Shown piece by piece: positions 22,887 through 50,609 of a stretch of 64,000 nucleotides of DNA (positions within the stretch are counted from its first letter, which is position 1; every line of letters starts with the position of its first letter). The translations under genes and the position numbers were made by a program. The notes under the pieces are model-generated. The model made no database searches. It was given only the letters and a program-made list of their open reading frames with translations, and was not told the origin of the DNA. Origin of the DNA: Octopus vulgaris (Eukaryota); assembly GCA_951406725.2 (NCBI GenBank), contig OX597814.1, positions 51,894,001-51,958,000 of the forward strand. The letters run 5' to 3'.

Positions 22887-24150
22887 TGTAGTGTGTAGAT
22901 GTAACGCTTGAAGGTTCTTATACTGGAGTAACCAGTGAACATCGAAGAATCAATACCAAGAAGGAAGAAATATGAATTTACATATATTTGTTCATTTGCC
23001 TGACAAGTAGTTAGAGTGACAGTAGTAATTGTAAAGATAGTGACAAAAAGGTTAGCTCGCTAGTTAGTAGTTGATAGTATAGAAGTTGCTGTCTACCATT
23101 TGAGAGGGAAAGAGTAAGGAATGCACAGTGCTGATGAGAAAGGAAGAAAGGAGAAAGGTGGTATTGTCTTTCTTGCAGGCAAAAACTTCTCTTCATATGT
23201 CGAGCAAAGGGTGAAGGGAAGTGCTGCTCTTGGTCATGGTTGATGCAAAAGTAATGTAGGTCAGTAATGTAGGTTAAACCCTTAACAAAGGCCTGACCTT
23301 TCCTTGACCAGCACAGATCCTTGGGATCAAGGGTTTCCCCATCAATCTGAAAAAGCTGAAAAAGTAGTGTTAGATGCTGGACATGCTCTTCTTTCATAGT
23401 ACTTGTGATGTGTAAGTCATCAATATAGGCATAGACGAAGTTGAGACCATGAATGACTTCATCTATAAACCTTTGAAAGGTGCTAGTTATGTTCTGCAAC
23501 CCAAAAGGCATGGAAAAAAACTCAAGGGAACTAAAAGGTGTAGTGACAGCAGTTTTTGGAATATCGTCCATGTTGAGAGGAATTTGGTGATATACCCAGA
23601 TGAGGTCAACCTTGGAGAAAATGGTGCATCCATGCAAGGTGGAAGAAAAATCCTGCAGGTGTGTGATAAAGCATCCATCCAGAATTGTGATAGCATTTAA
23701 CTGCCTGTAGTCCCCACCTGGATGAAAATCAGTAGATATTTTTTGAACTAAATGAAGGAGTGAAGACCAGGGGCTAGTTGAAGAACAAATAAGCCCCAGT
23801 TGCAGCATGTGGTTGAATTCAGCTTTCGCAACCTTGAGTTTATCTGGAGGTAAATATCAAGAACAAGCAGTAGTATTGTGGCAAGAGCCATAAAGGCTAA
23901 AGGGAACAGGGCAGAGTTATGCTCCCTCATTCTATCGTCAGTAGGTTGTGCTTCAATGGCACTTCCATTAGGGATGTATAAAAACCCTAGTCAGACATCC
24001 ATTCTCTTTTTCTGTTTCCTTTTCTGGGCAGGCAGTTTGTCAACTGCCAACACAGCTAGGACTGTTAGCTCTCTTTTACTCCAGGCCATGACAACTACCA
24101 TGCTATGTAGCTAGAGCAATGCTCACTCTATTCTTTGAGCATGAACCTTT
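22887..24150 (-). mobile_element. Gypsy (Ty3) LTR retrotransposon relic, RT fragment
   Basis: ORF 23011-23808 contains SPWSSLLHLVQK, DYRQLN, FSKVDL, DIPKTAVTTPF, MPFGL, FQRFID and YAYIDDL, the Gypsy RT motifs. RT similarity ends near 23345. Outer boundaries approximate. Confidence 0.85.
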
Positions 24151-27248: not shown

Positions 27249-27297
27249 CTCTTTCTTCAAAACTCCACTTGGGCAATCTTTCATGAAATCCCTATAC
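27249..27297 (-). CDS. NCS1: NCS-1-like coding exon (non-functional EF-1 loop, CPSG motif)
   Basis: Reads G + YRDFMKDCPSGVLKKE, with the NCS-family KDCPSG signature. Acceptor ttttacag, donor gtaagt, 49 nt, in frame with the next exon. Confidence 0.93.
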
Positions 27298-29872: not shown

Positions 29873-29912
<40 letters not shown>

Positions 29913-29964
29913 TATATACATACATATATGTACATACCTACATATATATGTATATATATGCATG

Positions 29965-30492
29965 TATGGCTACAGGACATCAAAAAACGTCAACAAAATG
30001 AGAAACAAGAACATAAAAAACAAAAACATAGAAAATGCTATTTTTTGAACAGCGAAAGAAACAAATAAAGAAATGAGACAGGCAACATAAAGAACATTCC
30101 ATTCATCAGTTGTCCCCTGTTTTATCTACTGTGTGTTTCGAAGGTAGGGACAAGATGCAACTTCATTAAAACAGTCCTCCCCACAAAGCAAATTAGATAG
30201 AATTTGAGAATTTTTTGTGGAGGATTAAAGTGGTAACAAAAGCAAGACAGTAAGAGAAAAACAGTAAAAACAAACGGTGAGGGCTGTTAAGCCAAGACGA
30301 TGTGAAGTGGTGAATGCTGGAAAAAAGAGCTTTGAGAAGAGACAGGCAAAAGCACGTCTTGTCTTTAGGAAAAAAGTGGAAGAAAGAAAGCTGGATAGCT
30401 GTTGGTCACATGTGAGCAACAAGAGAGTCAAGGAGGAAGAGTGAGAGAGAGAGAAGGAACATTTCTCATTTCTTTTATGTCCTGTACCCATA
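29965..30492. mobile_element. Unclassified about 530-bp repeat with 16-bp terminal inverted repeats, inside a (TA)n microsatellite
   Basis: tatggctacaggacat (29965-29980) is the inverted complement of atgtcctgtacccata (30477-30492) with 1 mismatch. TA-rich microsatellite on both sides. Confidence 0.7.
30099..30224 (-). ncRNA. Candidate permuted hammerhead-like RNA motif (degenerate copy)
   Basis: Minus strand: AUC-uuguccc-ua-ccuuc-GAAA...uaaaacag-gggacaa-CUGAUGA. Stem I 7 bp perfect and stem IIIb 8 bp perfect. Proximal stem III mismatched, consistent with CpG decay. Confidence 0.5.
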
Positions 30493-30562
30493 TGTGCATG
30501 TATATATACATATATATATGTAGGTATGTACATATATGTATGTATATATGCATATATTTATA

Positions 30563-32230
30563 TAAGGTCTTTAAGGGACAACCTGCTGAGAGCCATGGAC
30601 CAGATCTGTGGTTGGTGCAAAGTCCCCTCTCGACCCAAAATAACGTGGTAGTGGAACAATGTTGTAGACAGGGCTATTAAAGAAAAGAGACAGGCTTGGA
30701 AGGTCTGGAAAAATGGTGGTAGCAGGGAATTGTATCAGACTACCAAAAGAGAAGCTGGGAGACAGGTTTATTAAGCCAGAGGGGAAGCAGATAAGAAAAA
30801 ATTTGCCAATGTTCTGCGCCATGAGGACCAAAGACTTGAGGTATTCCGTGTTGCAAGACAGTGTGTGAGAGAGAATCGTGATATGGTAGGAGAGAAATGT
30901 GTTCGCATGGATGATGGCTCACTTGCGCTGAATGAGGATGCAAAGACAAATCACAAATGCCTTCAGGTAGATGGCCCTGCTTGATCTGTAGAAAAGGTGT
31001 AGGTAGAAACTCTATAAGATGCACCAGGTGTAAGATATGGACACATAAGAGGTGCAGCAATGTCAAAGGAAGGCTAACTGGGAAGATAGTTTTTGTATGT
31101 GGCAGATGCTCAGGAGCAATAAACACTGAAAATGCTCAGAGACCAACTTCTGCCACATTCCAGGGAGAAAAACTAGAAATTGTTGATAGCTTCCGTTACC
31201 TAGGTGACCAAGTCAGTAGCGGGGGCGGATGTGCTGAAAGCGTAACTGCTAGAGTAAGAATAGCTTGAGCAAAGTTCAGAGAGCTCTTACCTCTGCTGGT
31301 GACAAAAGGCCTCTCGCTCAGAATAAAAGGCAGACTGTATGATGCATGTGTACGAACAGCCATGCTACATAGCAGTGAAACTTGGGCCGTGACTGCTGAG
31401 GATATGCGTAAGCTCGCAAGAAATGAAGCCAGTATGCTCCGATGGATGTGTAATGTCAGTGTTCATAATCGACAGAGTGTAAGTACCTTGAGAGAAAAGC
31501 TGGACCTAAGAAGCATCAGTTGTGGTGTGCAAAAGAGACGTTTGCGCTGGTATGGTCATGTAGCGAGAATGGATGAAGATAGTTGTGTGAAAAAGTGCCA
31601 CACCCTAGTGGATGAGGGAACCTGTGGAAGAGGCAGACCCAGGAAAACCTGGGACGAGGTGGTGAAGCACGACCTTCGAACTTTAGGTCTCACTGAGGAG
31701 ATGACTAGAGACCGAGACCTAAGGAAGCATGCTGTGCGTGAGAAGACTCGGCAGGACTAGTGAGACCATTACCCGCGGACTCTACCTGGGACATAGCCAG
31801 CCCACTTATGCATACCTTTCCTTCTTGTGTCACAAACCCTACTTGTGAAGACCTGTTGAGGCAAGTGAAAATCAAAATCATTCAACATCAATGGAAATTG
31901 TAGCTGTGATACCAGTGCCGGTGGCATATAAGAGAACCATCCGAATGTGGCCGTTGCCAGCGCCGCCCCGACTGGCCTCCATGCTGGTGGCACGTAAAAA
32001 GCACCATCCAATTGTGGCCGTTGCCAGCTTCATCTGGCACCTGTGCAGGTGGCACGTAAAAAGCACCCACTACACTCAGTGGAGTGGTTGGCGTTAGGAA
32101 GGGCATCCAGCTGTAGAAACACTGCCAGATCAGACTGGGCCTGGCACAGTCTTCTAGCTTCCCAGACCCCAGTTGAACCGTCCAACCCATGCTAGCATGG
32201 AAAACGGACGTTAAACGATGATGATGATGA
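30563..32230 (+). mobile_element. RTE-clade LINE, 5'-truncated with internal RT deletion, intact 3' UTR and (GAT)n tail
   Basis: EN-RT linker (WNNVVDRAIKEKRQAWKVWK), PHD-like Cys/His cluster, FRYLGD, RLYDACVRTAMLH, RRLRWYGHVARM, GRGRPRKTW. 3' UTR has ~55-bp subrepeats and a gatgatgat tail. In-frame stops present. Confidence 0.92.
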
Positions 32231-32659
32231 TTATTATTATATGATCATATGCCATGCATCCATTTTCAAGTAAGTTTTATCTCTCTCTCTCTCTCTCATA
32301 TTAAAGGGAAATGCAAACTGATTAAAATTAGTTCGTATGAACATGAGAGAAGTGGTTTTGTTTGTCTCGTGTGTATATGTTTAACCCTAGGTTGGACCTG
32401 CTGAAGAAGATCAGACCTGGTGAGTTCTTGACTCGCTAAAAGAATATCAGAAACCAATTGGTCCAGGAAACTAGATGGTAAATGTTTTTCATTTCCAAAT
32501 TTATTCCTGTTGAATTTTATCCCCAAATTTTGTGGTTATAGAACCTATCTGTTCTTTCTAGTGTGTAGAATCCCTATAAGTGGATTCCTTATGTGTTTAA
32601 ATATACACTATATCGTGTATATATATATATACACACATACACACACAAACACTCATTTA

Positions 32660-33195
32660 TATATAATGAACACCACCTTTTCTTTTTCATGTAGAATGTG
32701 CTGAATATGCATTTGCAGGGGATCTAATAGCATATTCTGAACGCCTTACTTCCCTGGGCATGGACACATTGAAACTCCGATGTTTGGCAGCTGACTTGGC
32801 AGACACCCATAAAATTATTAACCATTTTACAAACAATAACTCTGAGTAACTTTTCAAACTCCACCTGTCTAACACCCGTGGACATGTTTACAAAGTCAGA
32901 AAACAGCACAGCTCCCATGACTTTTGGAAACATTTTTTCACACGAAGAGTTGCTGAAGCATGGAACAGACTGCCAGCATCAGTTGCTAGTGTCGGACCAC
33001 TGCATCCTTCAAAACTTCCATGCTTCCTGAGATTCGCCAACACTACACCTGATTTCCTCCCCTCCATACACACACAAGCATGTATCTGACTCATACACTG
33101 TTCACTTCCCAGACATTTGTACATTACTGCATATGCTTTATATGCACTTTTGACAAGTTGTGGTGCACCTGAGCACTGTATACAATAATTTCATT
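32660..33195 (+). mobile_element. CR1-group LINE 3' end fragment
   Basis: Same family as 25680-26290 but opposite strand: aaacagcacagctcccatgactttt...gttgctgaagcatggaa...gtgcacctgagcactgtatacaataa. Confidence 0.88.
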
Positions 33196-33869
33196 ATATA
33201 TTATATATGAATTCTATAATTTATTGTACTTTACTTCTTGAACATCTACAAAAGTATGTTGAAGATCCCCATATTCAAATTCCAAGAAAAAAAGCATGAA
33301 AGTATAGTATAGGTGTAGTTACAGGAAACCTGTGACCTAGTAGTTTGACAACTGGAGAATGATAAAAGATATAACTGGAATCAACGTGATCAACTAAAAC
33401 TGTTAATGGTAATAGACAAGCATAGTTGCAATCCAAACCAGAAAAATAATAAAAGAATATCTATGATATCAAGTGGAAAGTGAAAGAGTTAGAAGAATAA
33501 TTCCTGTCTTAACTGAGTTTGCAGTTTGATTTCAGTTGGAGTCTGGTTCAACTGAAACCACACTACTTCAGCAGAAGTCTGATTCAACCAGGCTGAAAAT
33601 TCAGTCCAGTTTCTGACTTGTGAGGAAATAACTTTATTATGATATACAATTGTAACAGAGGGTTGGAGGTGAAATTGTTGGTTGAATTAAAAATAATGAA
33701 ATTGTTTCAGTCATGAATATAACATTATGAAAATTCGTTTTGGAAGGAAACAAAATACTTATGCTATTGTAACAGAACCATCATAGAAATACAGCTTGAT
33801 GAGGTAATTATCTAAGAAAAAAAATATTTACTAGGTCTTCAAGTTTATCATTTAAAAGCAGTTTGAATC

Positions 33870-34247
33870 AAATGGCATGTAAAAAAACACCATTTGAGCG
33901 TGATCATTACCTGTGTCACTTTAGTGGCACTTGTGCTGGTGGCACATGAAATAACATTCTAGCAAGGTCATTGCCAGTGCTGCTGGACTGGCTCCTGTGC
34001 AGGTGGCACATAAAAAAAAACACCATTTGAGTGTGGCCATTGCCAGTATCGCTTGACTGGCCCTCGTGCTGGTGGCACGTAAAAGCACCCACTACACTTT
34101 CGGAGTGATTGGCATTAGGAAGGGCATCCAGCTGTAGAAACTCTGCCAGATCAGATTGGAGTCTGGTGTAGCCATCTGGTTCGCCAGACCTCAGTCAAAT
34201 CGTCCAACCCATGCTAGCATGGAAAGCGGACGTTAAACGATGATGAT
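33870..34247 (+). mobile_element. RTE 3' UTR fragment with subrepeats
   Basis: Repeated ggcac(a/g)taaaa..caccatttgag units and tail acccatgctagcatggaaagcggacgttaaacgatgatga. Confidence 0.85.
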
Positions 34248-37200
34248 TAGTTCTTGGTTGATTTTTGTATAAATTTCTTTCATATTTTACAATTCAGACA
34301 CTTGAAAGCTTTATTTTGTTACATTCCAATTGCTAAACTAGCAACATTATTCTAGTGATTTACAATTCTTAAACGATATAAAAATTCTTCAAAAGGAGGA
34401 GGATAATGAGGATTTCTTCTTGGTCTATACTTTTCCCAAGTATATAAAAATGAACAGGTGGATCAAGGGCAGACAATCTTCACTAATAAAATAGTCAGGC
34501 TATGGTTAATCCATGACTACAAAAAGAGTAATAAAGAAAGATGTGGGAAGGATAAAGAAAGACAAAAAGGAAGAGGTATGAAAACTACTTCAGAAGCAAT
34601 AAGCATTAGTTTAGCATAATCCTTAGATTTTCTCAATATTTAATCTATTAAATTCTAAGAGAATGAAGTGTCTTATAACTCAGTACTCCACATCTATGCT
34701 AATACGCTTCAACTAATCTTTGGTTCTTCACAGTTTCAATACTGTTACTAATCTCTAAATGAGCTCATGTTTTCTGTTGCTGTTTTGAATCTTTTATCTG
34801 CATTATCACATTGAGAATCTGCAACTATCATCTTTCTTTTATAAAGAATAGAGGAAATAAAACTTTCCTGAACAGCCTTTCTCTAGAATCTTCATTGTTA
34901 AGCAAACAGAACGTGTTTTTCACAGAAAGAGCCATGGGGAGATGTGTGTGTGTGTGTGTGTGTGTGTGTGGTGAAAGAGAGAAGAATACACTGATATCTA
35001 ACCGACTACATGCAAAAATACTATCACAGAAAGTTGTTTTTGGAAGTTAAATTCCTTGACTCGCCTACATCTATTTTCATAGGTGTATTACTGTTAGCAA
35101 TATAGGTATTTTTATAGGTATTACTGTTAGCAGACTATAATTAAAATTTTGCTCTTAACATTATCATCATTGTTATTGTTATTATTTTTGTGTTTACTTT
35201 ACTATGCTTGCACAGGTTAAATGACTTTATAGAGATAAATGTTTTTAAAAGGCTGGAGGCTTTTCTTGTTTCCAAGCAAGGTCTATCAAATGAATCACAA
35301 CCAAGGCATGTTTTCATGGAAGACTGTAAATAAACTTACAATCAATGCACAAATATCAAGATAAAATGAATACATATTCATACACACAAGTAGAGAGACA
35401 CATACACATGCAAAAACACACACAATAAGCTCCTTCCAGTTTCTGTCAACCAAATTTCACTCACATGGCATTGGTTAATATTGAAGAAGACATCATCCAA
35501 CAGTATCCATCCAGTAGTTCCAAAAAGAACACTTAACCATACAACAATGCCTGCACCATTGTATATGTATGTATATATTTTATCATGATTGACGTACACT
35601 GTTGTCATTTGTTACAGATTTCCAATCGGCGAAGTTGTTCACTACATTTCTAACAACACGAGAGTCAATGGAGCATCTGTAACTCAGTGTATGACAAATA
35701 TCACAAGAGACTTCTTATGCAGAATGCTGATTTTTCACTTTATTGAATGAACTTATAGATTGAAGAAAGTATTGATTATCATCTACATTTACCGTGTCTT
35801 TATGAAAAATTGCTGTTAGGGCATCTTTAAAAGGTAAGCATCTGATTTTGTGATCTTCAAAGAAAAAGTACATTTCTTTGTACAAACATTCAGGAGAAAG
35901 TTCTACAGAAATATCAATGGCCAATATATGAAAAATTCACTTTAGAACCACACCTATATCATGAATGAAAATTTCTGTTTTCTAAAGTACTAAAGAATAT
36001 ATTAAAAAGTAAACAATATTGTTGCTGTTCTTTTAACTACAAGTAATGTACTCAAAATCACAAATAAGTTAAAAAACCAAGATTTTTTTAATGGTCCCTT
36101 TATGGTTATGTTTAGCATTGATATACAAGTACCATATAGATGTAGTTAGCTCATAGCCATTTTATTTGTTGCTGTTTAGCTTTAAGTCAACTCTGATTGA
36201 GAAGACCTGTAACCAAAGGCATTCCATCCATGACATTCCCGTAGTTTTAGAAGTGTCTCCATCTATATTATCTAATTAGCCCTTCCTTTGTTTTAGGGAG
36301 TTGAAGATGTTTGGGGAAGGTCAGTGGTTTGCCTTTATCAGAGTGAATGATCACGTTGAGGTTCTGAGACACTTGATAAGCTAAGTGTTTGTTATAGGCC
36401 AGATTCTGGTTTGAGTCATTTTACTTCACTTATTCTTTGTGTCTGTGATTTCAAGCAGTAGTTATAATACTAGAAATAGCTTGGCTCCATCAAATTGATT
36501 TTTCCTTATCATACTTTTAAAGTCTTTACTGATGATCAAATGACCCATTAAGAGTTATAAGACATTTTACTTTTCTCTATAACAATGTAAACAGTACATT
36601 TAGCATTCAGAAATATATTCCTTCAATACTAGACATATACTTCAATAAATAATCAAGAAATTCGTTTAAAATCAAATCTCAAAGAAACTAGCTCCAGTGA
36701 GTTTGGCAATGTTCTTTATTTCTGAAAAACCATTAACAGTTGGCCTAAAAACCCAGTTCTTCTGAATCTAAAACAAGAATCAGGTCATAACCTCTCTAAG
36801 TTTCGCTTGAAGGAAACTATCCAAACTTTAGGATAAGAATTGACATTTCTTGCTTCAAAAGATATTAGAATTTGAAATTTATCAATAATATAATGGAACA
36901 TGATGGTTATACAGTTTACTGACGGGCAGCTAATAGGATTCCTGAAATAACAAAACATGTTAGAAAATTTTCACCTAGATAGAACACCAGTCTGTATCAC
37001 CATCTTAAGGCATGGGGTCACTGAGCATTTACCTCTGACCCCACTGGTGGAGGGGTCCAATACTTATCTATGTATGCTGTGATTTTGCTACCAATAAGTA
37101 TATGTAGGGGCCCTTGTGCATTGATTTGCTGCTAAGATATTTCAGCTGGTCTGTCACTCCGAGAAAGTAATTTAACTCAGAATGCAAAACAAATGAATCA

Positions 37201-37324
37201 GTTGTCAATGTTGACCCAGGTCAATGCCAATCAAGCAGATCTCAGGTGAAAGTTGTTCCAGCCTTTTCTTTCACACAAGCTGAATCTAGTACTATTGTAT
37301 TTAAAGTATTTTTTGCCTTTTTAA

Positions 37325-37541
37325 CCCTTTTGTTACCATATTTTTAATGAAATACACAATCTTTGTTTCAATTAATTTTGAAATTGATGTAGGATTTAGT
37401 AAAATAATTTCATTATTAAGCTTTTGTCTGGAGCATACATTAACATAATATTTTTATGGATGGTTTTAATTTAAATAACTTTAAAGCAAGAGATTTCTAT
37501 CATAATATCAGAGCAGTCTCAGGTAGATTAGTATCAAACAG
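37325..37541. mobile_element. piggyBac-type MITE (TTAA)
   Basis: TTAA 37321-37324 + cccttttgttaccata...gtatcaaacag + TTAA 37542-37545. Colinear with 25777-25998. Confidence 0.8.
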
Positions 37542-37856
37542 TTAAGGTTGTGTGATTTTAGGGCTATTTGGTTGGTATTTCCAGCAAGTTGAGTAATTAT
37601 GTGAAGGCTGTGTCACTGGCTTGATCAGTTGTACATTTTAGATTGTAGATACTTGCAATAGGTACATGTAACCCTTCCAATACATGTCACAACTAGTGAC
37701 TAAAAAATCCATCAGTTTACTGGATGAGGACATTGTGGACATACAGGTGTAGTAAAAATAAGACCTATTAAAGCATGGATAAGAATCTCAGAGAAACCCA
37801 CAGTCAATACTATCTAGAAAAAATGGGTACTATTAGGTTATCTGCCTATTGAAATA

Positions 37857-39145
37857 TGAGGTCTGATCCAAAAAGTATCCGGATTAGTGCTATAAAAACA
37901 AAACTACAACACATACCGATTTGGCATTTAATCTCCTTCAAAGTAGTCTCCTTTGGAAGCCATGCACTTAATTCGGTGTTGTTTCTATTGATGAAAGCAT
38001 TTTTGGAACTCGTTTTCTGGGATAATCAGCAGCTGCCTCATCGCATTCACTTTGATTTCCTTGACGTCCTAAAATTTTCCTTTCAAGTAGGATTTGATTT
38101 TTGGAAAGAGGAAAAAGTTGCAAGGGATGAGATCTGGGGAATACGGTGGCTGTCAGATCAGGGGAATGCTGTGCCAAGCCCAAAACTGCCACACAAGCTG
38201 TGCTGAATGGGCTAGTGTGTTGTCATAGTGCAATTGCCACTCACTTGATGCATGCAATTATGGCCTTTTACAATGAATAGCATCCCACAAATGCCTCAAA
38301 ACGTCATGGTAGTATTTCTTGCTTACTGTCTAAACAGTTGGAGCCTATAAATGATGAACAATCCCCTTGTAGTTGAAGAAAACGGTCAACAACATCTTCA
38401 CATTGCTTCAACTCATGAGAGGTTGGAGTCTTCCACTGTGAAGACTGAGCCTTTGTTTTGGAGTCATAGCCATAGACCCATGATTCCTCACCTGTTATGA
38501 CCATTTTCATAAAGTTTTCATCATTCTCAACACAATCAAGGAGATCTTGTGCAACTGAAACCCAAGTGGTTTTTTTGGGTCAGCTGAAAGCAGTTTTGAC
38601 ACAAACTTGACAGACATGCATCTCATACCCAAATCTTCAGTGATAATGGACTGAACTGAACCATAACTTATCTGTACGTCCTCTGATGGCTCATGGATGG
38701 TGATTCGACAGCTGCATACACATCTGCGATATTTATCTCAATTCTGCTGGTTGTGGGTCTCCCAGAATGTTTGTCATTTTCGTCATTTTTGTGGCCATCT
38801 TGGAAATGTCTGAACCACTCATAAACTTGTGTGTGGCTCATACACTCCTCTCCATACACTTTCTGCAACTTTGCATAGGCCTCTGAAAGGTATCGCCAAG
38901 CTTTTGACAAAAGTTGGTGCAGATGATTCTCTGCTCAACTTTCTCTGCCATGGTCAATGCAATGATCACATGCTACAAATGTTTCTTCCAAACACTGTTG
39001 TAAACAACGGAACTGAGCTAGAATGTTAAACTTTAGTGTGTATGCACAGCAGAGCTCAAGGTCAATCTGTGCCAAGCAACTTCACCCTGTGTGCTTTAGC
39101 TTCGTTACTATGGCAACAGTCCGGATACTTATTGATCAGACCACA
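37857..39145 (-). mobile_element. Full-length defective mariner transposon
   Basis: About 28-bp TIRs (tgaggtctgatccaaaaagtatccgga / tccggatacttattgatcagaccaca) with TA on both sides. Transposase fragments VYEWFRHFQDG..SGRP (HTH), ITGEESWVYGYD..QSSQWK and HSPDL; several frameshifts. Confidence 0.93.
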
Positions 39146-39429
39146 TACACATCGTTGTGCATCATCAGCATCCTTGAACTATGGATCATAGTGAAATCAT
39201 CATCATCATCATTTTAATGCTTGTATGGAATTTAATGAAGCAGATTTTCTATGCTCAGATGCCCTACTTGTTGCCAACCCTCACTTGTCACCATCAAGGT
39301 AATATTTCCCCCATGGTGGGACATGCTTTTACAGAAGCCAGGAAACAAAGACACCAACTGTATGGCTGATGCTCATTTACAGCTATCATGCCCTGCCAAG
39401 ACAAGGAGACATAAAACACACCCATGCAA

Positions 39430-39464
39430 ACACATACGTACATACATACATATATATACATACA

Positions 39465-39501
<37 letters not shown>

Positions 39502-39570
39502 ATACACACATTTTACACATACACACACGTACATGCATGCATGCACATGTATACACACACACACGCACAC
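39430..39570. repeat. (TACA)n/(CA)n microsatellite
   Basis: Directly visible; source of several spurious ORFs. Confidence 0.9.
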
Positions 39571-40019
39571 AGCTTCTTCCTGTTTATGTCTATCAAATCC
39601 ACTCACAAAGCTTTGGTCAACCCAAGGCAAGAGTAAAAGACACTTGCCCAAGGTTCCCCACAGTGACACTGAACCTGAAACTATGTGGTTAGGAAGCACA
39701 TGCAGTCATGTATCTGGAAAAATAAATGTTTGTAGGCTTAAGGTGACCTTGTTCCAATGGATGTATAATGTTAGTGTGCATGAAAGTTATAGCACAGGTG
39801 AACTGAGAGTAAAAATAGACAGAAAAATCAGTCATAGTGTACAAAAGAGAAGACTATACTAATACAGACATGTGATGTATATGTAAACTGATAGCTGGAT
39901 TAAAGAAAATAAAGGGATGCACATAGATTACAACAATAGATATGTAAGTCTTCCCTTATTTTCTGCAAGCTACTAGTGCTTGTAGCATGGATCTGATCAA
40001 ATGTAGCTGGGTATAATAA

Positions 40020-40870
40020 TTCAAAGTAATAAAAGATCAACATCCACGTGGCAGACTTAGTTAGAGTAATGAGAAATGTATCCCCACTATGTCAACCACA
40101 AGAACAACAACGCATCCAGCACTACATATCTCGAATGCAACGTTCCGGATACACACAGTATGATAGAATCAGAGTGTACAAAGAAGCGAAAACAAGATTC
40201 AAACGCATTCTAAGAGATGAGAAAAACAGTATATGCCCCCTATACTGCAACAAGTTCTGAAATAGGTTGGAGAGGGAGACCAACAAAAGAAATAAAAACA
40301 ATACTTGGTATGATAACAAAAAGTTTCACAGCGTAATGTTTGTTGATGCTACACCTAAGAATGAATTAAGTAAGGCATTTGAGAAAATCCTGCGTACAAC
40401 TGGTCTTAAGATCAAAGTTGTAGAAAAGACAAGTAGGACTATCAAATCTGTATTACGTACATCATATCCATTTGATAGAATCACGTGTCCAAATAATTGT
40501 GCAGTATGTTCTGCAAACCCACATGTGAACTGCAAAATGAAGAGCACTGTATATCAGATTAAGTGCCAAGAAGGAGCTTGTGCGATCATCCCAGAGTCAT
40601 ATATTGGTGAGACTTCTAGGAGCATCAATGATAGGTTCAAAGAACACCTGGACAACTACATTGAAAAGAAACCAAACTCCATCTTTTATCAGCATGTTGT
40701 AGACTACCTCAAGGGCTCTTTAGGGAGACTTAAGTTAAACATCTTTTCTACAAATCCCACTGATGTAATGCTGAGACAAGTCACTGAAGCTGTCTGTATA
40801 CAAGAATACAAACCCGCTCTCAACCGTAAATCCAAATTGGGTAACACCTAGATTCCACTCAGGAGTACCC
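40020..40870 (+). mobile_element. Penelope-like element 3' fragment (RT C-terminus, Cys linker, GIY-YIG endonuclease)
   Basis: RMQRSGY, CPNNCAVC..NC linker, VYQIKC...YIGETSRSINDRFKEH...EAVCIQEYKPALN. One internal stop at about 40258. Confidence 0.9.
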
Positions 40871-41139
40871 CTCTATAACAACCCCTTTCTCTCATTTCAT
40901 GTAGAAATCCATACATACATGTTGATATGCATGATACTGAAATACATATATGTAGTTATATATAACCATATGAGCGGACATAGTTTGATACGTATATACG
41001 TATGTGTAGATGTATGTGTGTGTGTATATGTGTGTATGTGTTGTGTGTTACTGGATACTGGATGGTTTCCATGTTGAAGCTCCTAGGAGCTTGTTCACAA
41101 GTCATTATCCATTAGTACAATTAATTTGTCATGTGTCGT

Positions 41140-42137
41140 ACAACACTTCGACTGTTGTAGCTAATAGTAACAGACAGGGTCAAATTTTGCAGGAAGCTTC
41201 ATCCAGTGTTTGTCAAGCCTGTTCTAAGGCATTGACTGATGGAGCTGCGACCACACTGTTTGGCAGACTGTTCCAGGTGGTGGTCACATGCTGTACGAAA
41301 AAGCAGCTTCTTTTGTTGAGCCTGCAGTGTGATCTTTCCAATTTCAAGCTGTGTCCTCTCGTATTTCTGCTTTGGAAGTAGTTGAATCGGGGGCAGCTGG
41401 TCAGGTACTGGCTGTGTGTATACTTATACATGTTGATCATATCCCTGCTGAGACGTCGATGTTTGAGACGAGGCAGGTTTAGTGCAGCCAAGCGATCTGG
41501 ATATGGCTTTTCTTTCAAGGATGCAATGCGTTTGGTGGCATGCCTCTAAAGATCCTCCAACTCACAACACATTGCCTTATGCTGGGGTTGCCAAACTGTG
41601 TGTCCATATTCAAGAATCAGGTGAACTAGAGACTTGTACAGTTGGACGAAGACAACAGGGGTGATGAAATCAAATGATCGTTGGATGTCTCCAAGGATTC
41701 GGTTTGCTTTTGAGGTCGCTTGGTTTATGTAGTTCCTGAAGGTCAGCCTTTTGTCAATCAAGATGCCAAGATTCCCCCTCCACCTTACTTTCTACTAGCT
41801 CCACCACAGACCATTCCCCTTGTGCATCCTGGCCTCTCATGTAGTATTTCCTGTCTGTCTTTGGGTTCCCCACTCTCAAGACAGAACACAACTCAGGATG
41901 GAACTGCATTTGCCAGTTCGTCAACCACTCATGAAGGCAATCCAGATCATCATCATGCAGCGTTGCCATGGTCACATTAACATCATTCCTTGTGAAGATC
42001 TTTGTGTCATCATCAAATAACCTGACATGGCTCTGGACATACTGAGGCAGGTCGTTTATATACATGAGAAACAGTACTGGGCCAATGACACTGCCTTGTG
42101 GGATGCCACTTGTCACCTCTCCCCTCTCTGACTTCAT
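41140..42137 (-). mobile_element. CR1-group LINE RT C-terminal fragment
   Basis: SGIPQGSVIGPVLFLMYINDLP, LFDDDTK, LEYGHTVWQP, TRGHSLKL, TWNSLP. Confidence 0.9.
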
Positions 42138-45100
42138 GTATCATATATATATGACACATAGTGTCATATATATATGTATAGATGGATAACCATATATGTG
42201 TATACTTTAAGATTATATGTATATTTGTGAGTGTGTGTAAGTGTCTATATGATTGTGTGTACTTGTATATATGTATAAGTAAGGTTATATTTGCATATAT
42301 GTATCTAAGATGTTGTATCCATTCACCGTTAGACAGTGGTGAGAGGGACAAACGCACACACACACACATATATGTGTGTCTATATATATGTATATGTATG
42401 TGCGTGTGTATACAACTTTCAACAAAGTAAAAGTCATGTATACAACTTGAACAGACACAGATCAGTACATAAACATACGTTCACATGTACATACACATGT
42501 ACACACACAGAGACATGTCTACACACCTAAATACTCACGTAAACACATAAGTACATACATACATACATACATACATATCATGAAATAACTGTTACTTTCT
42601 CAGATGCAGCATGGAATTTTGTCGGTGAACAGGTCATGGTCTCAAAGCGGCAAAAATATTTTGACAAATTGAATTTAAATGTTGAAGTAAATCTAACGGT
42701 TTTTGTGTGTTTTAAAATGGCTTATAAACACCTTCCATGTTGCAATTGTTTTCATTCCTGTGCACGATCTTAGATCAGGTCACTTGCTATGCAAGTACAT
42801 CTCTGTAATAAAATAATAGATTCTTACAAATGTGGTTTGAAAATGGACAGTAATTCAAGTATAGAGAAGTAAGAATTTCAAATTACAATGAGTCTGTGAA
42901 GTCAACTGAGTAAGTCATGCTTTGTAGAAAATGTAGTGCGCAAAGTCTTTATGAATTGAAGTTCTTCTTTGAGTGCCTGACTGATAAGATTGAATAATGT
43001 TGCTGTGGTGAAAACGAGTGAAGGGGAGGAGGAAACTAAAATTAAAGAAAAAATACTGTGAAATGGTTTAACATTCAACTTAGACCTGTCCTCTCTTTTA
43101 GATAAGCTGAATTGAGGGCTTTATATAAAAAATATTCTAATGATTCCTATGGAGCTAACATTCATTGAAAAGAAAGTACATAGTGAAATAGCTTGTTAAT
43201 GCTTTGCATATTGGTACTTCACATTGTTACTCATTATGTGACAGATTGTGAAGCTGGTTAATAGTGAAGTTATAAGGAAAACTTTACTTTCTTTAATAAA
43301 GGCATAATTAATTTCTGTCAGAATAGTCCATTATTGTGTCAATTTGTTTCATGAATAATCACAAATTCCATCATGGTAATAACAAAGAATTCATTAGTTT
43401 GATCTGAATCACAACACTTAGCAGCAAAGAATGCTCCAAAGGAATTTAGATGTTTGTTGTCATTGGACTAGCAGCAAACACTTCCAGCAGAATGTGTACA
43501 TACTGAATTAGATATTGGTACCAAACAATTTTCAAAAGGAAGTAGGATTTTATTGTTGTTCCCTTGTGAAAAACTGTCAACCAATGCTAGCAGAAGACTG
43601 GGAAGAAGTAGTCAAATCTGATCCCAGGATGCTAGACATCATAAAAATGGTAAAAGATGATAATAAAAGGTGAAACACATTGTTGGAACTGATCCATCCA
43701 ACTCATGATAGCATGGAAGAGCATAACTAAAATCTTGATAATTGAAGCTTCCTATGCTGACATTTAATTTGATCTGTTGTCCTATAATGAGTGAATGACT
43801 AATTCAATGAACATCATGCTTTACTGCACCTTGCCACTAGTTATTGTCAATGATAGAAAACATGGGAAAGTTATGTACCAAAATGAAAGACAATATGAGC
43901 AAATTAAGCGCCAAAATGTAACATGACATGGGAGAATTATGTACCAAAATGTAAAATTCTAACCTAATTTAGGATACTTATCTTGAGCTATGATATTTCT
44001 ATTATGATTTTCTTATTTTACATTTTTCTCTGTTTCATAATTCAGCTAAATATGGCAAATATTATTTTTGTATCTCAACCATCAGCAATTCCTTAGTTAT
44101 ATGCCATTCCTAGAGTAAGCTACTAAAACGGAATATAATTACTTGAAAAATAGCTACAATAATGTTCTTTGTCAGGAATTATATATATATATATATATAA
44201 CAGGAATTTCAAAGTATTTTCTTGGAGACTGATTCCATTCTCTTTGACCACAACCAACCTCAGTAACCAAACTTAACTAAATTTATTGCATAATTGCAAC
44301 AATACAGCATATTTGAAACTGGTAATTCTGCATTGATCTATTTATGACTTGAGGCACTTATACATTTGTTTCCAGTCTTCTGGCCATGGGAAATATTACA
44401 TTACTTGGAAATATGCGAAGTTTGGTGGCAAGAAGAACATCCTGTCATAGAAAATCTGCCTCAACAAATTCTGTCTGACACATGCAAGCATAGAAAAGTG
44501 GGAATTAAAATAATGACGATGATGATGACGTAGGATTGTGTTTGACTTAAAATAGGGCTAAAATATTCCTTATACACCAAATCAATATCCAATTGGAACT
44601 TTTCTAGTGTAGCAAATCAATATACCATAATGTATTTACAGTAATAATATTAGTGCTAACATTAGGGATATTTGATTGTTACTCGTAGAAATCTATTTCA
44701 ATGGCAGGAAAACAAGGAAAATATTGACAATCTCTTAGAATTTGCACATCAATAGCTATCTCAACATTCTGTTTGAAAAGAAAGTGGGATGGAAGAAATA
44801 TGAAATCAGTTCAGACCACTTTTGAGTGTTTCATATGAAAAGTAAGAAAAAATGAATATATCAAGTATATACATTGATGTGGGAAGTAACAGTATAATAG
44901 TACTTCATATTACATGTGACTGTTGGTCACACTGATTTTGAAAGAGTTCTGGAGACAGAATACTTTGTAAATCAAAATATGCAGGTATTAATCTTAATAG
45001 ACAACAAAAACAATGAGAGAAATATCATTTCTTTGATGAAAAACATTACAACACTGAATACTTTGAAGGAAATACTAATAAAGTAAGAACTAGCAATAAA

Positions 45101-45661
45101 ATAGCTCTTAGATGTGCGTCATCTAGGAAAATAGTTATTCTGAAATAAAACTGATTTAGAGCAAGATTCTAGAAACTTTAGACAATTTCTCTGCCATACA
45201 AAAAATACATGCTCCTCTCAGAGGTTAGCAATACTAAAGTATCCATTCAAATTCTTTTTTGCTGGTTTCAGTAATTAAATAGTAGCAATACCGGGGCATA
45301 TTTTTCAAATATTTTAATCCACCTATTATTCTGTCTGATATTCATTTTGTCAATTTTGATAAAGAAGAAAGGGAAAAGGGACATAACTACAACAAATCAA
45401 AGTACAAGGTTTTTTTTTTTTTTGATGCACCAGTTTTGCACCTCATGCTGAAATATATGCACAGGCATGGCTGTGTGTTAAGACATTTGCTTTTCGACCA
45501 AATGGTTTGTAAGCAGAGTCAGCCCTTTAAAATAAATTTGTTCTAATGTCTGCAATGTGCTATTAACTCATTTTTTCTAGTGAGTAAGCATAAGCATATT
45601 TGCTAGATAATTATGTGGTATTTTTCTGTAGTGCATAAGAGACATGTGTTGTAATCATATA

Positions 45662-46715
45662 CATAAGGGATGGTATTGTCTATGATTGCCCAAGTTATAT
45701 TTTACATATTTCTCCTTTAGGTCCCAAAATGAGCTTTGATAGAGATAAATTGTGGTTGGGAGATAACAGTTTACTTAAAGTATCTGCCCTCAACTTCCAC
45801 CAAGGCCTCCAGAGGGCTCTGGAACCTGGTACATGCACTCCTCATTGTGTCCCTGAGATCTTCAAACACCTCTTTGGTCTTGGCCACCAGATCAACCTTG
45901 GTGTTGCAGGCAGAGTGGTTAGTGTCTTTCACAACTGTGCTTTATACACAGTAATCCACGGGATTTCAATTAGAGGAATTAGGTAGCCAGAAATTGGGGG
46001 TTGTAGAAATTCTTTGACAACCACTTCTGACTCTTTCCAGAGGTATGACAAGGAACTGAATCCTGCTGCCACACATATGGCTTTCCAGCAGCAACTCATA
46101 GTCTCCAGCAGCTTCACGTAGCTGCCTGAAGTGAGCCTAAGGCTCTATTCAAAGATGTGGAGCGGCATTATGTCATCCTCACTAGAGAACATCACAGTTT
46201 GGGAGAACTTGGTTTTTATGATATGTGGGATATCACATGGATTGTAGGCAAGCCACCTGTAGTTCTGGATGTTGTGTAACTGATCCTGGCAGATGTTCTT
46301 TTCTTCTGAGAAGAACCAGATCATCCCTGGCTCAACAGGATGCCTCAGCTTTTCCAGTGGTTTCTTTGCCTTCGACTAGCAGTCCCCTTTGGTCTTGGCT
46401 GTCAGAATTTATCCCTTATATCTCTTGTATGAATGATAGCAAAAGCCCTCATTCAGGGCTAACTTCATGGAGATGACAAACACTCATCTCTTGCCAAAGC
46501 CCAAATTTCCATGCTCATTTTGTCCTGCAGTTGTTAGATAAATTCTGGTGTGTGAATGCAGTCACAACACATGCTGTGTCCTTTCCTGCTGGCCATAGCT
46601 TCATGGTCTCCATTGCAGATGTCCATATCATTTTCTTACAGCCTTTACAGTGTTCACAAAACACTGGTCAGCAGTCATGATGCTGATATTTTGATATTGG
46701 GTGTGAATTGTCATG
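45662..46715 (-). mobile_element. Decayed Tc1/mariner-superfamily transposon, probably maT (DD37D)
   Basis: Minus strand reads GKPYVWQQDSVPCHT and, after a frameshift, WLPNSSN*NPVDY, resembling the QQD..APxH / WPPxSPDLNPLD motifs. Boundaries approximate. Confidence 0.6.
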
Positions 46716-46779
46716 ATACAAGTAATTCTTTCCCAGTATTCAAATGACTTTCAGTCTTCCATGTCAGGTGACTTTTCCT

Positions 46780-49217
46780 CAACAACACCTTTAATTTTAT
46801 GCTCTCCAATGCCATTTACTCAAAATGGAAGATATAATTCCTGGAGGACTGGGTCGATGCCCATCCAAACCACATCATTTTCTTTGTCCTCACTGAAACC
46901 CATCTTAGTAACCTTCACCTGGAAGCCGAGGTGAAAGTTAAAAATTTCAAAGCCATTCGTGCTGATCGTGCTGGCAGAAGAAAGGGTGGGACTGCCATTT
47001 ATGTTCTTGATTCATTCTCAACAGAAGCTATGAACATATTTTCCAATGGATACTGCGAAGCAGTCACTGTATTCAGTCAAACCAACAACTTAAGAGTAGT
47101 TGGGCTCTACAGACCACCCCAAACGCCCCTACCATGCTTCAAGGAATGCCTCAACAACATAAAGTGTTTCATTCAGCAGTGTCAACCTGACAACATTTTA
47201 ATGATGGGAGACTTCAACCTTCCCAGGGTTGACTGGTCTACAAACAGTCTGCCGCCAGGTTCTTCTCCCTCAACCCCTGACAGGGGGGCAGTGGAATCGC
47301 TTCTTGACTTCATGAATGATTTCTTCCTGTCCCAACTGGTGCTCGAACCAACGAGATGTCACAAAAACGTCTTAGACTTAATTTTCCGCAATCACACTGA
47401 TACTATCCACAATATTGCAGTGGAGAAAACCCTACTCTCTGATCATGACATGGTTCTCTGATCTGAGATTTCAACGGTCAAAATGCAAAACAAATGTCAT
47501 CCCTCCTGTTCATACATTTGACACTATGGATTTCCACAATGCAAACTGGGAAGCGATCAATAATGATCTTGCACAAGTCGATTGGTCCTTCACGCACACA
47601 TACACACCCACTAACATCAAAAACATCAAAAAGTCCTGGCAGTCATTTGTAGACACCATTACAAACATATGTGCAAAACACACCCCATTTAAGATCTGCA
47701 AACAAATCTAAGTGTCGAATCCCCAGAAATAGAAAATCTCTCATCAGGAAAATTAAAAGAATCAACAAAAAAATCAACAAGCTGAAATACTGTCAACAGC
47801 AACACACCAACCTGACTGCCATCTCGTCGCTAGAGATTAAAAAACAAACTCCAAAACAACATGATGTCTATCATCAATAGTCAGAGAAGAGCTGAAGAGG
47901 CCTGGGCCATTGAGAAGATCAAACTCAATCCCAAAGTGTTCTTTTCATTTGCAAAAAAACACAGAGTCACTGGTTCTACTGTTGGCCCTCTGATTGATGA
48001 AAATGGTACTCTCCAAGACAATGCCAAAACCATGGGAGAGATATTGCAGAAACAATATTGCTCTGTTTTCAGCAATCCTGATATGACTGATCTGGGCTGT
48101 ATCAGTGATGTTACTCCCCAATATACTTTATCGGACAAAACCTTTGGCGCTCCTGATGTCTTAGCAGCAATAAAGGAAATGAAGCATAATTCAGCAGTAG
48201 GTCCCGTAGGTTCCCTGCTTGTATCTTGAAGATGTGTCAACACCAACTTGCACCCCCTCTAGCCAATCTGTGGCGGAACTCACTGGATGCAGGATATATA
48301 CCAGAAGACCTTCTATCCCAGTCTGCTGTCCCAGTTTTCAAAAAGGAAACAAATCGCTTGCCGTGAATTACCGTCCAATCTCACTCACCTCTCACATCAT
48401 TAAGGTATTTGAGAGAGTGCTGAGATCGCGTATAACTCACTTCCTTGAGAGTCATAATATGCTGAATTCCAACCAGCATGGATTTCGTAATGGAAGAGAT
48501 TGCCTGACGCAGCTACTGCATCATTTTGATGACATTTTGAGAGCCTTGATTTCAGCAAGGCCTTTGACAGAGTTGATCATAAGATCCTTTTGAGAAAACT
48601 GTCCAATATTGGTGTCACTGGAAAGCTGCTGCAGTGGATCAAGTGCTTCCTGTCTAACAGAACCCAACATGTTGTAGTCAAATCCAGCCCAGCCAGGAGT
48701 CAAATCCAGCCCAGCCAAAGTCAGCAGTGGTGTCCCACAAGGCACTGTGTTGGGCCCACTTCTTTTCATCATCTACTTAAATGATATTACTGACACCATC
48801 AAACAAAGTAACATCAGAACCTTCGCTGATAATTCCAAGCTCCAGAAGGTCATCAATGGCGTGGATGGCCGAATAAGCCTTCAGTCAGACCTACTGGCTG
48901 TTGTCCAATGAGCGGAAAGGAACAACATGTTGCTAAACGAAGACAAATTTGAACTGATCCACTTTGGAAGGGAGGACGCTCTGAAACTCCCATACACCCT
49001 TCCTTCTGGAGAAATTCTCATGGCATCTAACAACATCAGACACTTGGGAGTAACAGTGGGCAACAACATAAGCTGGGCTACACATATAAGCAGCAAAGTT
49101 GACATGGCCCGCAGAATGTGTTCCTGGATTCTCAGAACCTTCCAGTCGAGAGATTCCCACACCATTATCCTTCTCTTCCCCACTTTTGCCCGACCCCACC
49201 TTGAATACTGCTGTCCA
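46780..49217 (+). mobile_element. CR1-group LINE ORF2 (APE endonuclease and RT), frameshifted and 3'-truncated
   Basis: RADR..GGTAIYV, LYRPP, MGDFNLP, LDLIF, SDH (APE); NYRPISLTS, QHGFR, DFSKAFD, GVPQGTVLGPLLF, FADN, HLGV, RPHLEYC (RT). Confidence 0.93.
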
Positions 49218-49490
49218 ATATCAGTGTCAATCGACACTGGAAAAAGTATATGTATTTGTGAAAGGAGCTGACTTCTCGTCGACAACCATGATTGTCACAC
49301 GCTGGTGATAGGTAAACACCTTTAAACTCGAGTCTGTGTGTATCATGAGTTGAAGACGGGGAGGACTGACTTCCAGATACTCACAGATAGTGTGTCTATA
49401 GCCAGCTGGAGGAGATATCTTCCTGGGGCTACAAACTACAGTAGCATCCACCCTTAGGGGTTAGCCATATTCAAATGGCAAATATGCGTC
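49218..49490. repeat. Unclassified GC-richer repeat fragment
   Basis: Abruptly replaces the CR1 RT and abuts the (TA/GATA)n tract. Possibly the 5' end of a second Hero-like copy (inference). Confidence 0.35.
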
Positions 49491-49515
49491 ACTATATATA
49501 TATAGATATATAGAT

Positions 49516-49548
<33 letters not shown>

Positions 49549-49574
49549 TATATATATATAGATAGATATATATA

Positions 49575-50117
49575 TCTTGCAAACAACTTGCACATGCAAG
49601 TGCTACCAGTTAAAAGCTCCATATATCGGAAGCTAGCAAGTGTATGGGGTCATCAGGAGAGAATGCGCGCCGTTTCGGGGCCTACCTCTCGACGGCATCA
49701 ATGCGCACCGGCCCCCCTCACTGATATGAGGCCCCGCTTGCTAGATCAGCTGGTTATGAAGAACTCAATATACTTCTAGCCATCGCTCATCGTCTCTTTT
49801 TACCCAAACCAGTGGCTAGCCTTCTCCACTGTAGATTGGATATCAGTCATGGTGGTATTGACTTTACGATGAGTTAGGCCTAACGATAACAACAGTCGTC
49901 TCACGCTGTGTCCTACAAACCCTCTACATCCGACTTTGATAGGAAAATATTCCGCTTTCCAGCCTACGTCTTCACACTCCTCGAGGAGGTTTTCCTAATG
50001 GTTTAATTTTCGAGCTCGAGCGGCGTCCATATTATCTTCGTGAGGAACCGTTAGCTCGACTATATTTACAACTTTCTTTATTTCACACCACATCAAAATA
50101 TCTGGTTTTTTCGAAAC
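49575..50117 (-). mobile_element. RLE-type (Hero/NeSL/R2-like) non-LTR retrotransposon 3' fragment in a microsatellite
   Basis: KPDILMW..KKVVNIVELTVPHEDN..ARARK..LEEC...GWKAEYFPIKVGCRGF...ASHW-WVKRDDERWLEVY* is a PD-(D/E)xK endonuclease C-terminus. Stop at 49765-49767, 3' UTR to about 49575, (TA)/(GATA)n on both sides. Confidence 0.85.
49633..49744 (-). ncRNA. Candidate permuted/pseudoknotted hammerhead-like ribozyme in the RLE retrotransposon 3' UTR
   Basis: CUAGCAAG-c-GGGG-CCUCA-uaucag-UGAGG-GGGGCC-g-GUGCGC-auugau-GCCGU-C-GAGAGG-ua-GGCCCC-GAA-ACGGC-GCGCAU-UCUCUC-CUGAUGA-CCCC-auaca-CUUGCUAG. Every capitalised arm has a complementary partner and the core motifs GUC, GAAA and CUGAUGA are intact. 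Confidence 0.6.
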
Positions 50118-50609
50118 TATATATATAGATATATAGATATATAGATAGATAGATATCTCACTCACACACATACATACACACTCACACACACACATACACA
50201 CACACATATATATACACACATATATAATGAGAATATGGATTGTGTATAAATGGTTTTGAATGTCCCACTTGTCATACCAATATAGTTTTTTTCTTCCACC
50301 AATGCTATTGTTTTGTAGATTATATCTTTTATGCAATGGGTTTCTAGATGTTCAGTTATTTATGGTGTGAATGGTTTTTGGCTTCCTGTGTAGCTGTAGC
50401 TAGTTTTTGTGCTATAGAGAAGCATTTGCAGATTAAGGAAGTTTTTAGATCTGAGATTGAACAACCACAACTTAAAGTACATTTCTCAAGGCTGACATAA
50501 CATTTCAAAAGTAAATATACAGAGAAAAGAACAAATGTGAAGGAAAAAGTTTAGGCTATTTGTTGTCTTACTAAATAAATTGAAACATAAATGAACTAAA
50601 TTTACATGG

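Follow-up and report, generated by a model that had tools for sequence, protein, structure and literature searches.

Two short motifs on the minus strand of a 64,000-nucleotide stretch of Octopus vulgaris DNA (contig OX597814.1, positions 51,894,001 to 51,958,000; the whole stretch is called the window) represent, judged from their sequence, a novel form of hammerhead in a novel genetic context, for which cleavage, by a monomer or a dimer, and a circular intermediate are predicted. It is proposed, with a probability only slightly above one half (about 0.52), that the motif forms a self-cleaving, pseudoknotted hammerhead of SGC/CSG topology, opened between core nucleotides A9 and G10.1, that folds within one copy and marks the unit boundaries of HERO-like retrotransposons with a restriction-like endonuclease (RLE) and of non-coding repeats. 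This proposal is built on the sequence of the motif, its covariation, its position and the terminal duplication of its carriers.

Motif B (49735–49646; all coordinates of both motifs are on the minus strand) parses in full, and its helices covary. From its 5′ end it consists of strand IVa (49735–49732), hairpin V (49731–49716), strand IIa (49715–49710), strand X′ (49709–49703) followed by a 6-nt bulge, III′ (49696–49692), C17 of the cleavage triplet GUC (49691), a stem I strand (49690–49686) followed by a 3-nt linker, II′ (49682–49677), the GAA of GAAA (49676–49674), III (49673–49669), X (49668–49662), I′ (49661–49657), CUGAUGA (49656–49650) and IVb (49649–49646). By analogy to published ribozymes (PMC10085705), the scissile bond is predicted directly after GUC, between 49690 and 49691. 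For this motif, 131 bases are identical in dozens of other copies. The ends that a preliminary description of the window had given for the two CUGAUGA motifs were confirmed, on the minus strand. It had also given the helix order common to both (triplet and stem I strand, then stem II strand and GAAA, then the other stem I strand and CUGAUGA) and the short linkers, its strand 'B' (IIa here) adjoining the base of the long stem in motif B with 0 nt between them. That helix order and core stand; helices IV and V had been missed, and the published SGC order had not been recognised. In the regions 49746–49716 and 49645–49630, an outer 8-bp helix prolongs stem IV of motif B, and complementarity between the region of hairpin V and the strand with CUGAUGA would allow an inactive alternative fold. 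A kink-turn at the III–X joint, sought by eye, found no match in motif B.

Eckert, Friedrich, Weinberg and Weinberg (2023) described hammerheads with the block order S-G-C as type SGC, a non-circular permutation in which about 3 nt link stem I with stem II, while the other sides of the two stems are joined by a helix (PMC10085705). That helix, 'IIIb' in the preliminary description, is named X here. In their report, type SGC comes only from metatranscriptomes and type CSG only from metagenomes, neither from genomes of known organisms, and ribozymes with the same stem I–II linker and helix X cleave at 0.004–0.19 per min. The octopus motif contains the hammerhead core (CUGANGA, GAAA, an NUH triplet, stems I, II and III plus the G10.1–C11.1 pair) together with the S-G-C order, short I–II link and helix X of type SGC, and lacks the uninterrupted block C of that type. 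The stem II 5′ strand lies upstream, not after CUGAUGA, with helices IV and V between A9 and G10.1: A9 leads directly into stem IV (4–10 bp), whose partner at the 5′ end leads directly into hairpin V and on to G10.1. The motif is thus an SGC/CSG ring opened between A9 and G10.1, which the RNA enters and leaves via stem IV. A stem II formed with bases after CUGAUGA was considered and rejected, being impossible in motif B and limited to 3–4 weak pairs in motif A; the upstream pairing, with covariation, was found instead. Downstream stem II pairing amounts to 0 bp in motif B and 0–2 bp in 13 of 14 metagenome hits, and locus L169 scores 4. The published search patterns need CUGAUGA(U)G plus stem II (PMC10085705), and a split-core motif would escape them. 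At one locus (L144:2520–2610) the stem II 3′ strand can, by eye, pair upstream or, SGC-like, with bases after CUGACGA-U; this is possibly an intermediate or switch between the split-core and published SGC forms. A literature search found neither this topology nor HERO-element hammerheads described, and for type SGC only Eckert et al.; subscription journals, Repbase Reports and the rest of the Eckert supplement may hold a notice.

Motif A (30224–30099) is a decayed copy whose positions were read by hand: IVa 30224–30221, V 30220–30181, IIa 30180–30176, X′ 30174–30167, U16.1 30155, C17 30154, stem I 30153–30147, II′ 30144–30140, GAA 30139–30137, X 30124–30117, I′ 30116–30110, CUGAUGA 30109–30103 and IVb 30102–30099. 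Its stem III is broken by A/C at the pair beside A15.1–U16.1, and both parsers rejected it. Among the 30 loci of the same family closest to motif A, a strict descriptor found stems I and III kept in five, four of which also retain the upstream stem II and X; a sixth strict match belongs to another family. An Rfam scan of the window matched neither motif and no ribozyme, returning only simple-repeat noise. The folding energies of three window stretches resembled those of shuffles (z −0.48 to 0.13), a comparison in which single-strand folding cannot model pseudoknots.

Conservation of the architecture was followed through the protein of family B, the retrotransposon family that carries motif B. 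Metagenomes yielded 24 elements with a match to the protein end, at 39–64% identity, and 13 of them (two near-identical) carry the full motif 111–259 nt downstream; in four further contigs the motif stands just 5′ of the open reading frame (ORF). A covariation set of 24 loci (17 metagenomic, seven from this genome), chosen by eye and descriptor, contained 21 that parse fully. Pairing statistics were taken over 23 loci, leaving out L136, which is without the upstream part. Helices I, II, III, X, IV and V show 97–100% native pairing, versus 40–66% when strands are combined across unrelated elements; 3–5 pair types occur at most helix positions, and in 23/23 no chimera scores as high as the native upstream half. 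The linkers A9–IV, IV–V and V–II are 0 nt in 20, 21 and 22 of the 23, as scored by a parser that penalises longer linkers and requires G10.1–C11.1. Stem III spans 4–9 bp and is not palindromic; arm lengths are narrow (15–20 and mostly 12–21 nt), as is the loop (17–21 nt).

Core positions in the 24 selected loci vary as follows: position 7 is U, C, A or G in 16, 5, 2 and 1, position 17 is C, A or U in 14, 7 and 3 and never G, and GAAA is present in 23. G at position 17 occurs in two old family-C-like copies outside this set. The architecture is kept through its structure and not its sequence. The idea of the preliminary description, that mobile elements carry a ribozyme family which shares its helix order and shows natural covariation, is borne out, with six covarying helices and none produced by shuffles. 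Locus L136 (3690–3757) has an S-G-C core with stems I and III, and an upstream stem II partner was not found there; it is possibly another variant. At L131 (2840–2945) a small hairpin sits between stem III and helix X, so the III–X link tolerates insertions.

Motifs A and B represent two separate high-copy families; first-look candidates, which are not copy numbers, amount to 2061 for one and 2233 for the other. A sequence-only S-G-C pattern matched the genome 1330 times, versus 37 for the reversed control. In a protein-guided metagenome scan of 60 loci (176,435 bases), the strict descriptor found 16 cores, 14 with an upstream stem II, all on the coding strand. Twenty dinucleotide shuffles of these loci gave at most one core each and no stem II. 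The shuffles predate a change of loop length in the descriptor; with zero at stem II, the higher levels stay at zero. The motif thus exceeds chance in both comparisons. As a check of specificity, the strict descriptor was applied to core-pattern hits from viruses (79) and prokaryotes (80 of more than 120); none of these 159 reached stem II and one was a bare core. A tolerant parser gave two 'full' parses among these 159, scoring 65–67 versus 75–113 for the 23 natives. No relative of the family-B protein was found in viral contigs.

Motif B lies about 70 nt past the stop codon of an ORF of about 1150 residues, of which open copies exist. The ORF encodes a zinc finger, a reverse transcriptase (RT), a CCHC zinc knuckle and a PD-(D/E)xK endonuclease motif, the last read by eye. 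The single ORF, the RT with C-terminal CCHC/PD-(D/E)xK and the 5′-truncated copies are those of an RLE-type retrotransposon without long terminal repeats (non-LTR), and family B, which is young, belongs on these features to that type. The best solved relatives of its protein are R2 proteins, a weak match, and relatives also occur among fish and lancelet proteins. Family B is probably HERO-like, a judgement drawn from dispersed insertion, the fish and lancelet relatives, PMC9004415 and PMC4640811. Its unit measures 3737–3738 nt. The window holds a 5′-truncated copy (49569..50118, minus strand; 97.5% over 551 bases to the intact unit end at L065), with the ORF end reaching to about 49765, a 3′ untranslated region (UTR) containing motif B and a 3′ end beside a TA-rich repeat.

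Several other family-B arrangements were seen. At L001 (C29:26431613-26432057) a segment of about 157 nt that takes in the 5′ half of motif B is present three times, head to tail, and truncated copies at L061–L063 and L067–L068 (C29) were amplified inside larger segmental repeats. Copies at L064 are inverted back-to-back with identical outer flanks, reflecting duplication or an assembly artefact, and at L065 (2–2884 and 8830–10000) pieces of another RLE-type element, with a 960-residue RT ORF, enclose a tandem insertion.

Motif A lies in a partial, non-coding family-A repeat (29886..30454, minus strand), near a short inverted piece (30470–30564). The family-A unit is about 700–740 nt, with partial, tandem and inverted copies, and no linked ORF was found in 90 loci of A1 and A2. 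In this genome the motif also occurs in families A2–A4, in family C, which is non-coding, and in D, another RLE family. Family C is young (L265:790–930; L321–L326), with a perfect motif, a long hairpin V and 2358 first-look candidates. A GIY-YIG end of a Penelope-like element in the window (40261–40851, plus strand) belongs to a young family with open frames of up to about 1000 residues. No partner of family A was found; in this GIY-YIG family, no linked hammerhead in either order was seen within 1.5 kb at 30 loci, the one hit being a neighbouring family-C repeat and the minimal order having been checked in seven loci only. At L156 (5000–5100) the motif stands 1.65 kb past an RLE ORF, in a different repeat, whose flank we take to be Ngaro/DIRS-like. 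Motif carriers may include other retroelement classes.

Long family-B copies are terminally duplicated, with the motif at both ends and the sequence reading uncut through the predicted site. Among the best 30 loci of a 5′-UTR sample (40 scored of 71 candidates), 18 extend upstream past this site into the end of a previous unit, seven have their start in the interval from the site to the region of the unit junction and five start further in. Both ends were compared in 15 insertions (of 17 tried). In four of them the ends have variants in common that occur in no other segment (2, 10, 3 and 12 variants), and the own end is closest or tied in eight. At the 3′ junctions, 42 of 48 distinct cases match 2–9 bases of a next unit, versus 8/48 in a shifted control. 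These shared private variants and junction matches imply that the duplication is rebuilt repeatedly and that priming occurs internally, at a point some 120 nt 3′ of where the RNA would be cut; internal priming has likewise been reported for a Penelope-like element (PMC11167929). A cut-and-ligated circle fits this pattern, by analogy with the elements of PMC7229834 and PMC4209133. Uncut tandem RNA with template switching also fits, as does gene conversion for the shared variants. A 5G/6G difference between upstream and downstream copies was dismissed as the sign of a fixed tandem master, being mixed among copies, and an independent second insertion into the element's own 5′ end is disfavoured, with one of 30 copies starting near the junction. 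The unit is spanned in four sets of contigs that are presumed to come from RNA, but contigs cannot show ends.

In the mechanism proposed here, stem IV would serve as entry and exit of the RNA, hairpin V would join it to the stem II 5′ strand, and the fold would form within one copy, probably slowly or under strain. By analogy, cleavage would follow NUH. Cleavage at the upstream copy would release the RNA of the element, with a short leader, from a host transcript, and cleavage at both copies would give RNA of unit length, open to closure by a host ligase. Reverse transcription, primed internally some 120 nt 3′ of this site, would pass more than once round, rebuilding the duplication.

A number of observations weigh against this proposal. 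None of the 30 5′-UTR copies begins where the cut is predicted, which means that the template visible here is not linear RNA that has been cut. Template switching on an uncut tandem transcript would produce this pattern too, and in 7/15 insertions another copy's end is closer to the upstream copy. Ten of the 24 metagenome elements gave no parse and one a partial parse; of these ten, two have less than 110 nt of flank, one contig ends within the motif and two are degenerate by eye. The covariation set was picked by eye and descriptor, and the tolerant parser passes 82/478 chimeras as 'full'. The RNAfold centroid pairs the CUGA of motif B with upstream sequence, Eckert et al. assumed that the CUGANGA block C and its flanking strands are unsplittable (PMC10085705), and a monomer of motif B with all pairs formed falls about 31 Å short of closing in a rigid-helix model.

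That model bears on the explanation favoured in the preliminary description, in which the motif is active only if the apical loop (the S and G blocks) docks into the base (IIa and I′-CUGAUGA) of another copy, either in trans or, within a transcript longer than one unit, between its two terminal copies. In that case a circle with one copy would persist and a two-copy precursor would be cut. In the hammerhead fold, stem III stacks on the end of stem II and stem I lies alongside II (PMC4209133), and helix X must link the far end of III with the far ends of I and II. In a crude model of rigid ideal helices (14–20 starts for hard cases), the unmet links as drawn are about 31 Å in B, 35 Å in L132, 11 Å in L169 and 27 Å in the published SGC-1; removing the III–X links brings closure at once. 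Docking would also suit the narrowly kept arm and loop lengths and the two motif copies per long insertion. Dimeric hammerheads have precedent in Penelope-like elements (PMC4209133) and amphibian retrozymes (PMC7229834), and the accessible text of Eckert et al. gives no concentration series (PMC10085705). Yet A1, A2, C and L138-type monomers close or nearly close, and B closes once about four pairs open (two of III and two of X or II), at a cost of about 10 kcal/mol versus about 17 from stems I and II, pseudoknot loops being unscored. SGC-1 cleaves (PMC10085705) though it falls equally short in the model, and stem III, at 4–9 bp and non-palindromic, is unlike that of known dimeric hammerheads. 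The earlier suggestion that a single molecule probably cannot close the core, for which 3D modelling of monomer versus dimer had been proposed, is supported by this model, as drawn, for B, L132 and L169 and not for A1, A2, C and the L138 type, with the cleaving SGC-1 about 27 Å short. The in-copy fold is ranked above the dimer on the grounds that a number of members can close as drawn and that the architecture is common to all, which leaves docking an unlikely but serious explanation. A partner-dependent switch would suit a circle-making element and is kept at about one in four. A joint account goes further and is improbable as a whole: a split-block-C hammerhead with a five-way core junction would be the standard terminal ribozyme of a widespread RLE clade and of parasitic non-coding repeats, cutting only when two copies meet and converting a longer-than-unit transcript into a stable unit-length circle, with internal priming and rolling-circle copying regenerating LTR-like ends each cycle.

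The absence of 5′ ends at the cut site and the location of all genomic 3′ ends beyond it would also suit a fold derived from the hammerhead that seldom if ever cuts by itself and acts mainly as a signal bound by an element protein (or is cut in a protein-dependent manner), directing priming about 120 nt downstream. In PMC11167929, a Penelope-like hammerhead cuts only with protein, RNA left uncut serves as the chief substrate, and none of the reads has its end at the site. The conservation pattern is nevertheless that of catalysis (a free position 7, the NUH rule) across 39–64% protein identity, and recurs in non-coding repeats with unrelated flanks, and this reading is quite improbable. Chance complementarity, or decayed type I minimal hammerheads rearranged by duplication, would account for folding energies no better than shuffles and for the broken copy A in the window. 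It is very hard to reconcile with six helices covarying in a fixed order, with 0/20 shuffles and 0/159 viral or prokaryotic hits reaching stem II, and with two tolerant parses below the range of the natives; this reading is largely refuted already.

The window lies in an intron-rich part of a 2.8-Gb genome. Sequence matches identify four coding exons of an NCS-1-like host gene on the minus strand (27296–27249, about 21560–21465, about 11235–11150 and 946–782), and one window exon is identical to octopod NCS-1. The first coding exon lies at C1:52,094,616-684, some 137 kb beyond the right end of the window, and the exon at 27296 is the next one detected; both motifs are therefore intronic and on the sense strand. 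This agrees with the earlier statement that they share the strand of the gene and with its condition that the transcript start further right. The suggestion that a copy could cut the NCS-1 pre-mRNA is unsupported: copy A is broken, so that only motif B could be active within these introns, and the repeats are present at thousands of places. With thousands of copies, the intronic placement needs no explanation, and the sense placement of both is probably chance. Elsewhere, the window contains fragments labelled by eye as a long interspersed nuclear element (LINE) of the APE type (46838–49220, plus strand), an RTE-like element (30570–31760, plus strand) and an LTR-type reverse transcriptase (23011–23856, minus strand), as well as a 180-bp tandem repeat in three copies, 97% alike (60919–61457).

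With this motif, the non-circularly permuted hammerheads, so far a few environmental RNAs, would come to include thousands of copies in the genome of an animal, and the assumption of an unsplittable CUGANGA block would fall. It would also supply dozens of natural variants for settling monomer versus dimer in knotted hammerheads. The carriers, relatives of the R2 elements used for gene insertion, point to a copying route in RLE retrotransposons that involves terminal duplication, internal priming and perhaps circular RNA, and so hint at an unrecognised way of copying in a group of animal jumping genes. If the two-copy circle reading were true, a LINE-class element would renew LTR-like ends every cycle.

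Compared with known systems, the motif is closest to types SGC and CSG, with which it shares the block order S-G-C, the I–II link of about 3 nt, helix X, short III–X links and a full core. It differs from them in its upstream stem II 5′ strand, the two helices between A9 and G10.1, the presence of both III–X links and a carrier that is animal retrotransposon DNA. As in Penelope-like elements (PMC4209133) and non-LTR retrozymes (PMC7229834), the ribozyme lies in a terminal repeat at both ends, with more-than-unit, tandem and inverted copies, a proposed circular RNA template and possible dimers. The hammerheads of those elements belong to type I, a circular permutation, and their stem III is short and palindromic, whereas the topology here is non-circular and stem III joins distant strands over 4–9 bp, unlike the absent or short palindromic stem III and type I order of a dimeric minimal hammerhead. 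The autonomous carrier here encodes a restriction-like endonuclease, that of Penelope-like elements GIY-YIG.

R2-type RLE elements with a 5′ ribozyme resembling that of hepatitis delta virus (HDV) likewise have a single ORF with RT and restriction-like endonuclease (PMC7650587, PMC13725137), and in both a ribozyme just 5′ of the ORF could release RNA and aid translation. Unlike theirs, the present ribozyme is a hammerhead rather than HDV-like, is encoded in the 3′ UTR and placed upstream through terminal duplication, and belongs to an element with dispersed insertion. The pseudoknot (PK) hammerhead (PMC11300833) also combines the core with extra helices and pseudoknotting, but its A9–G10.1 connection is continuous and its 'helix IV' is a stem-loop on helix I, distinct from the stem IV through which RNA would enter and leave the motif described here.

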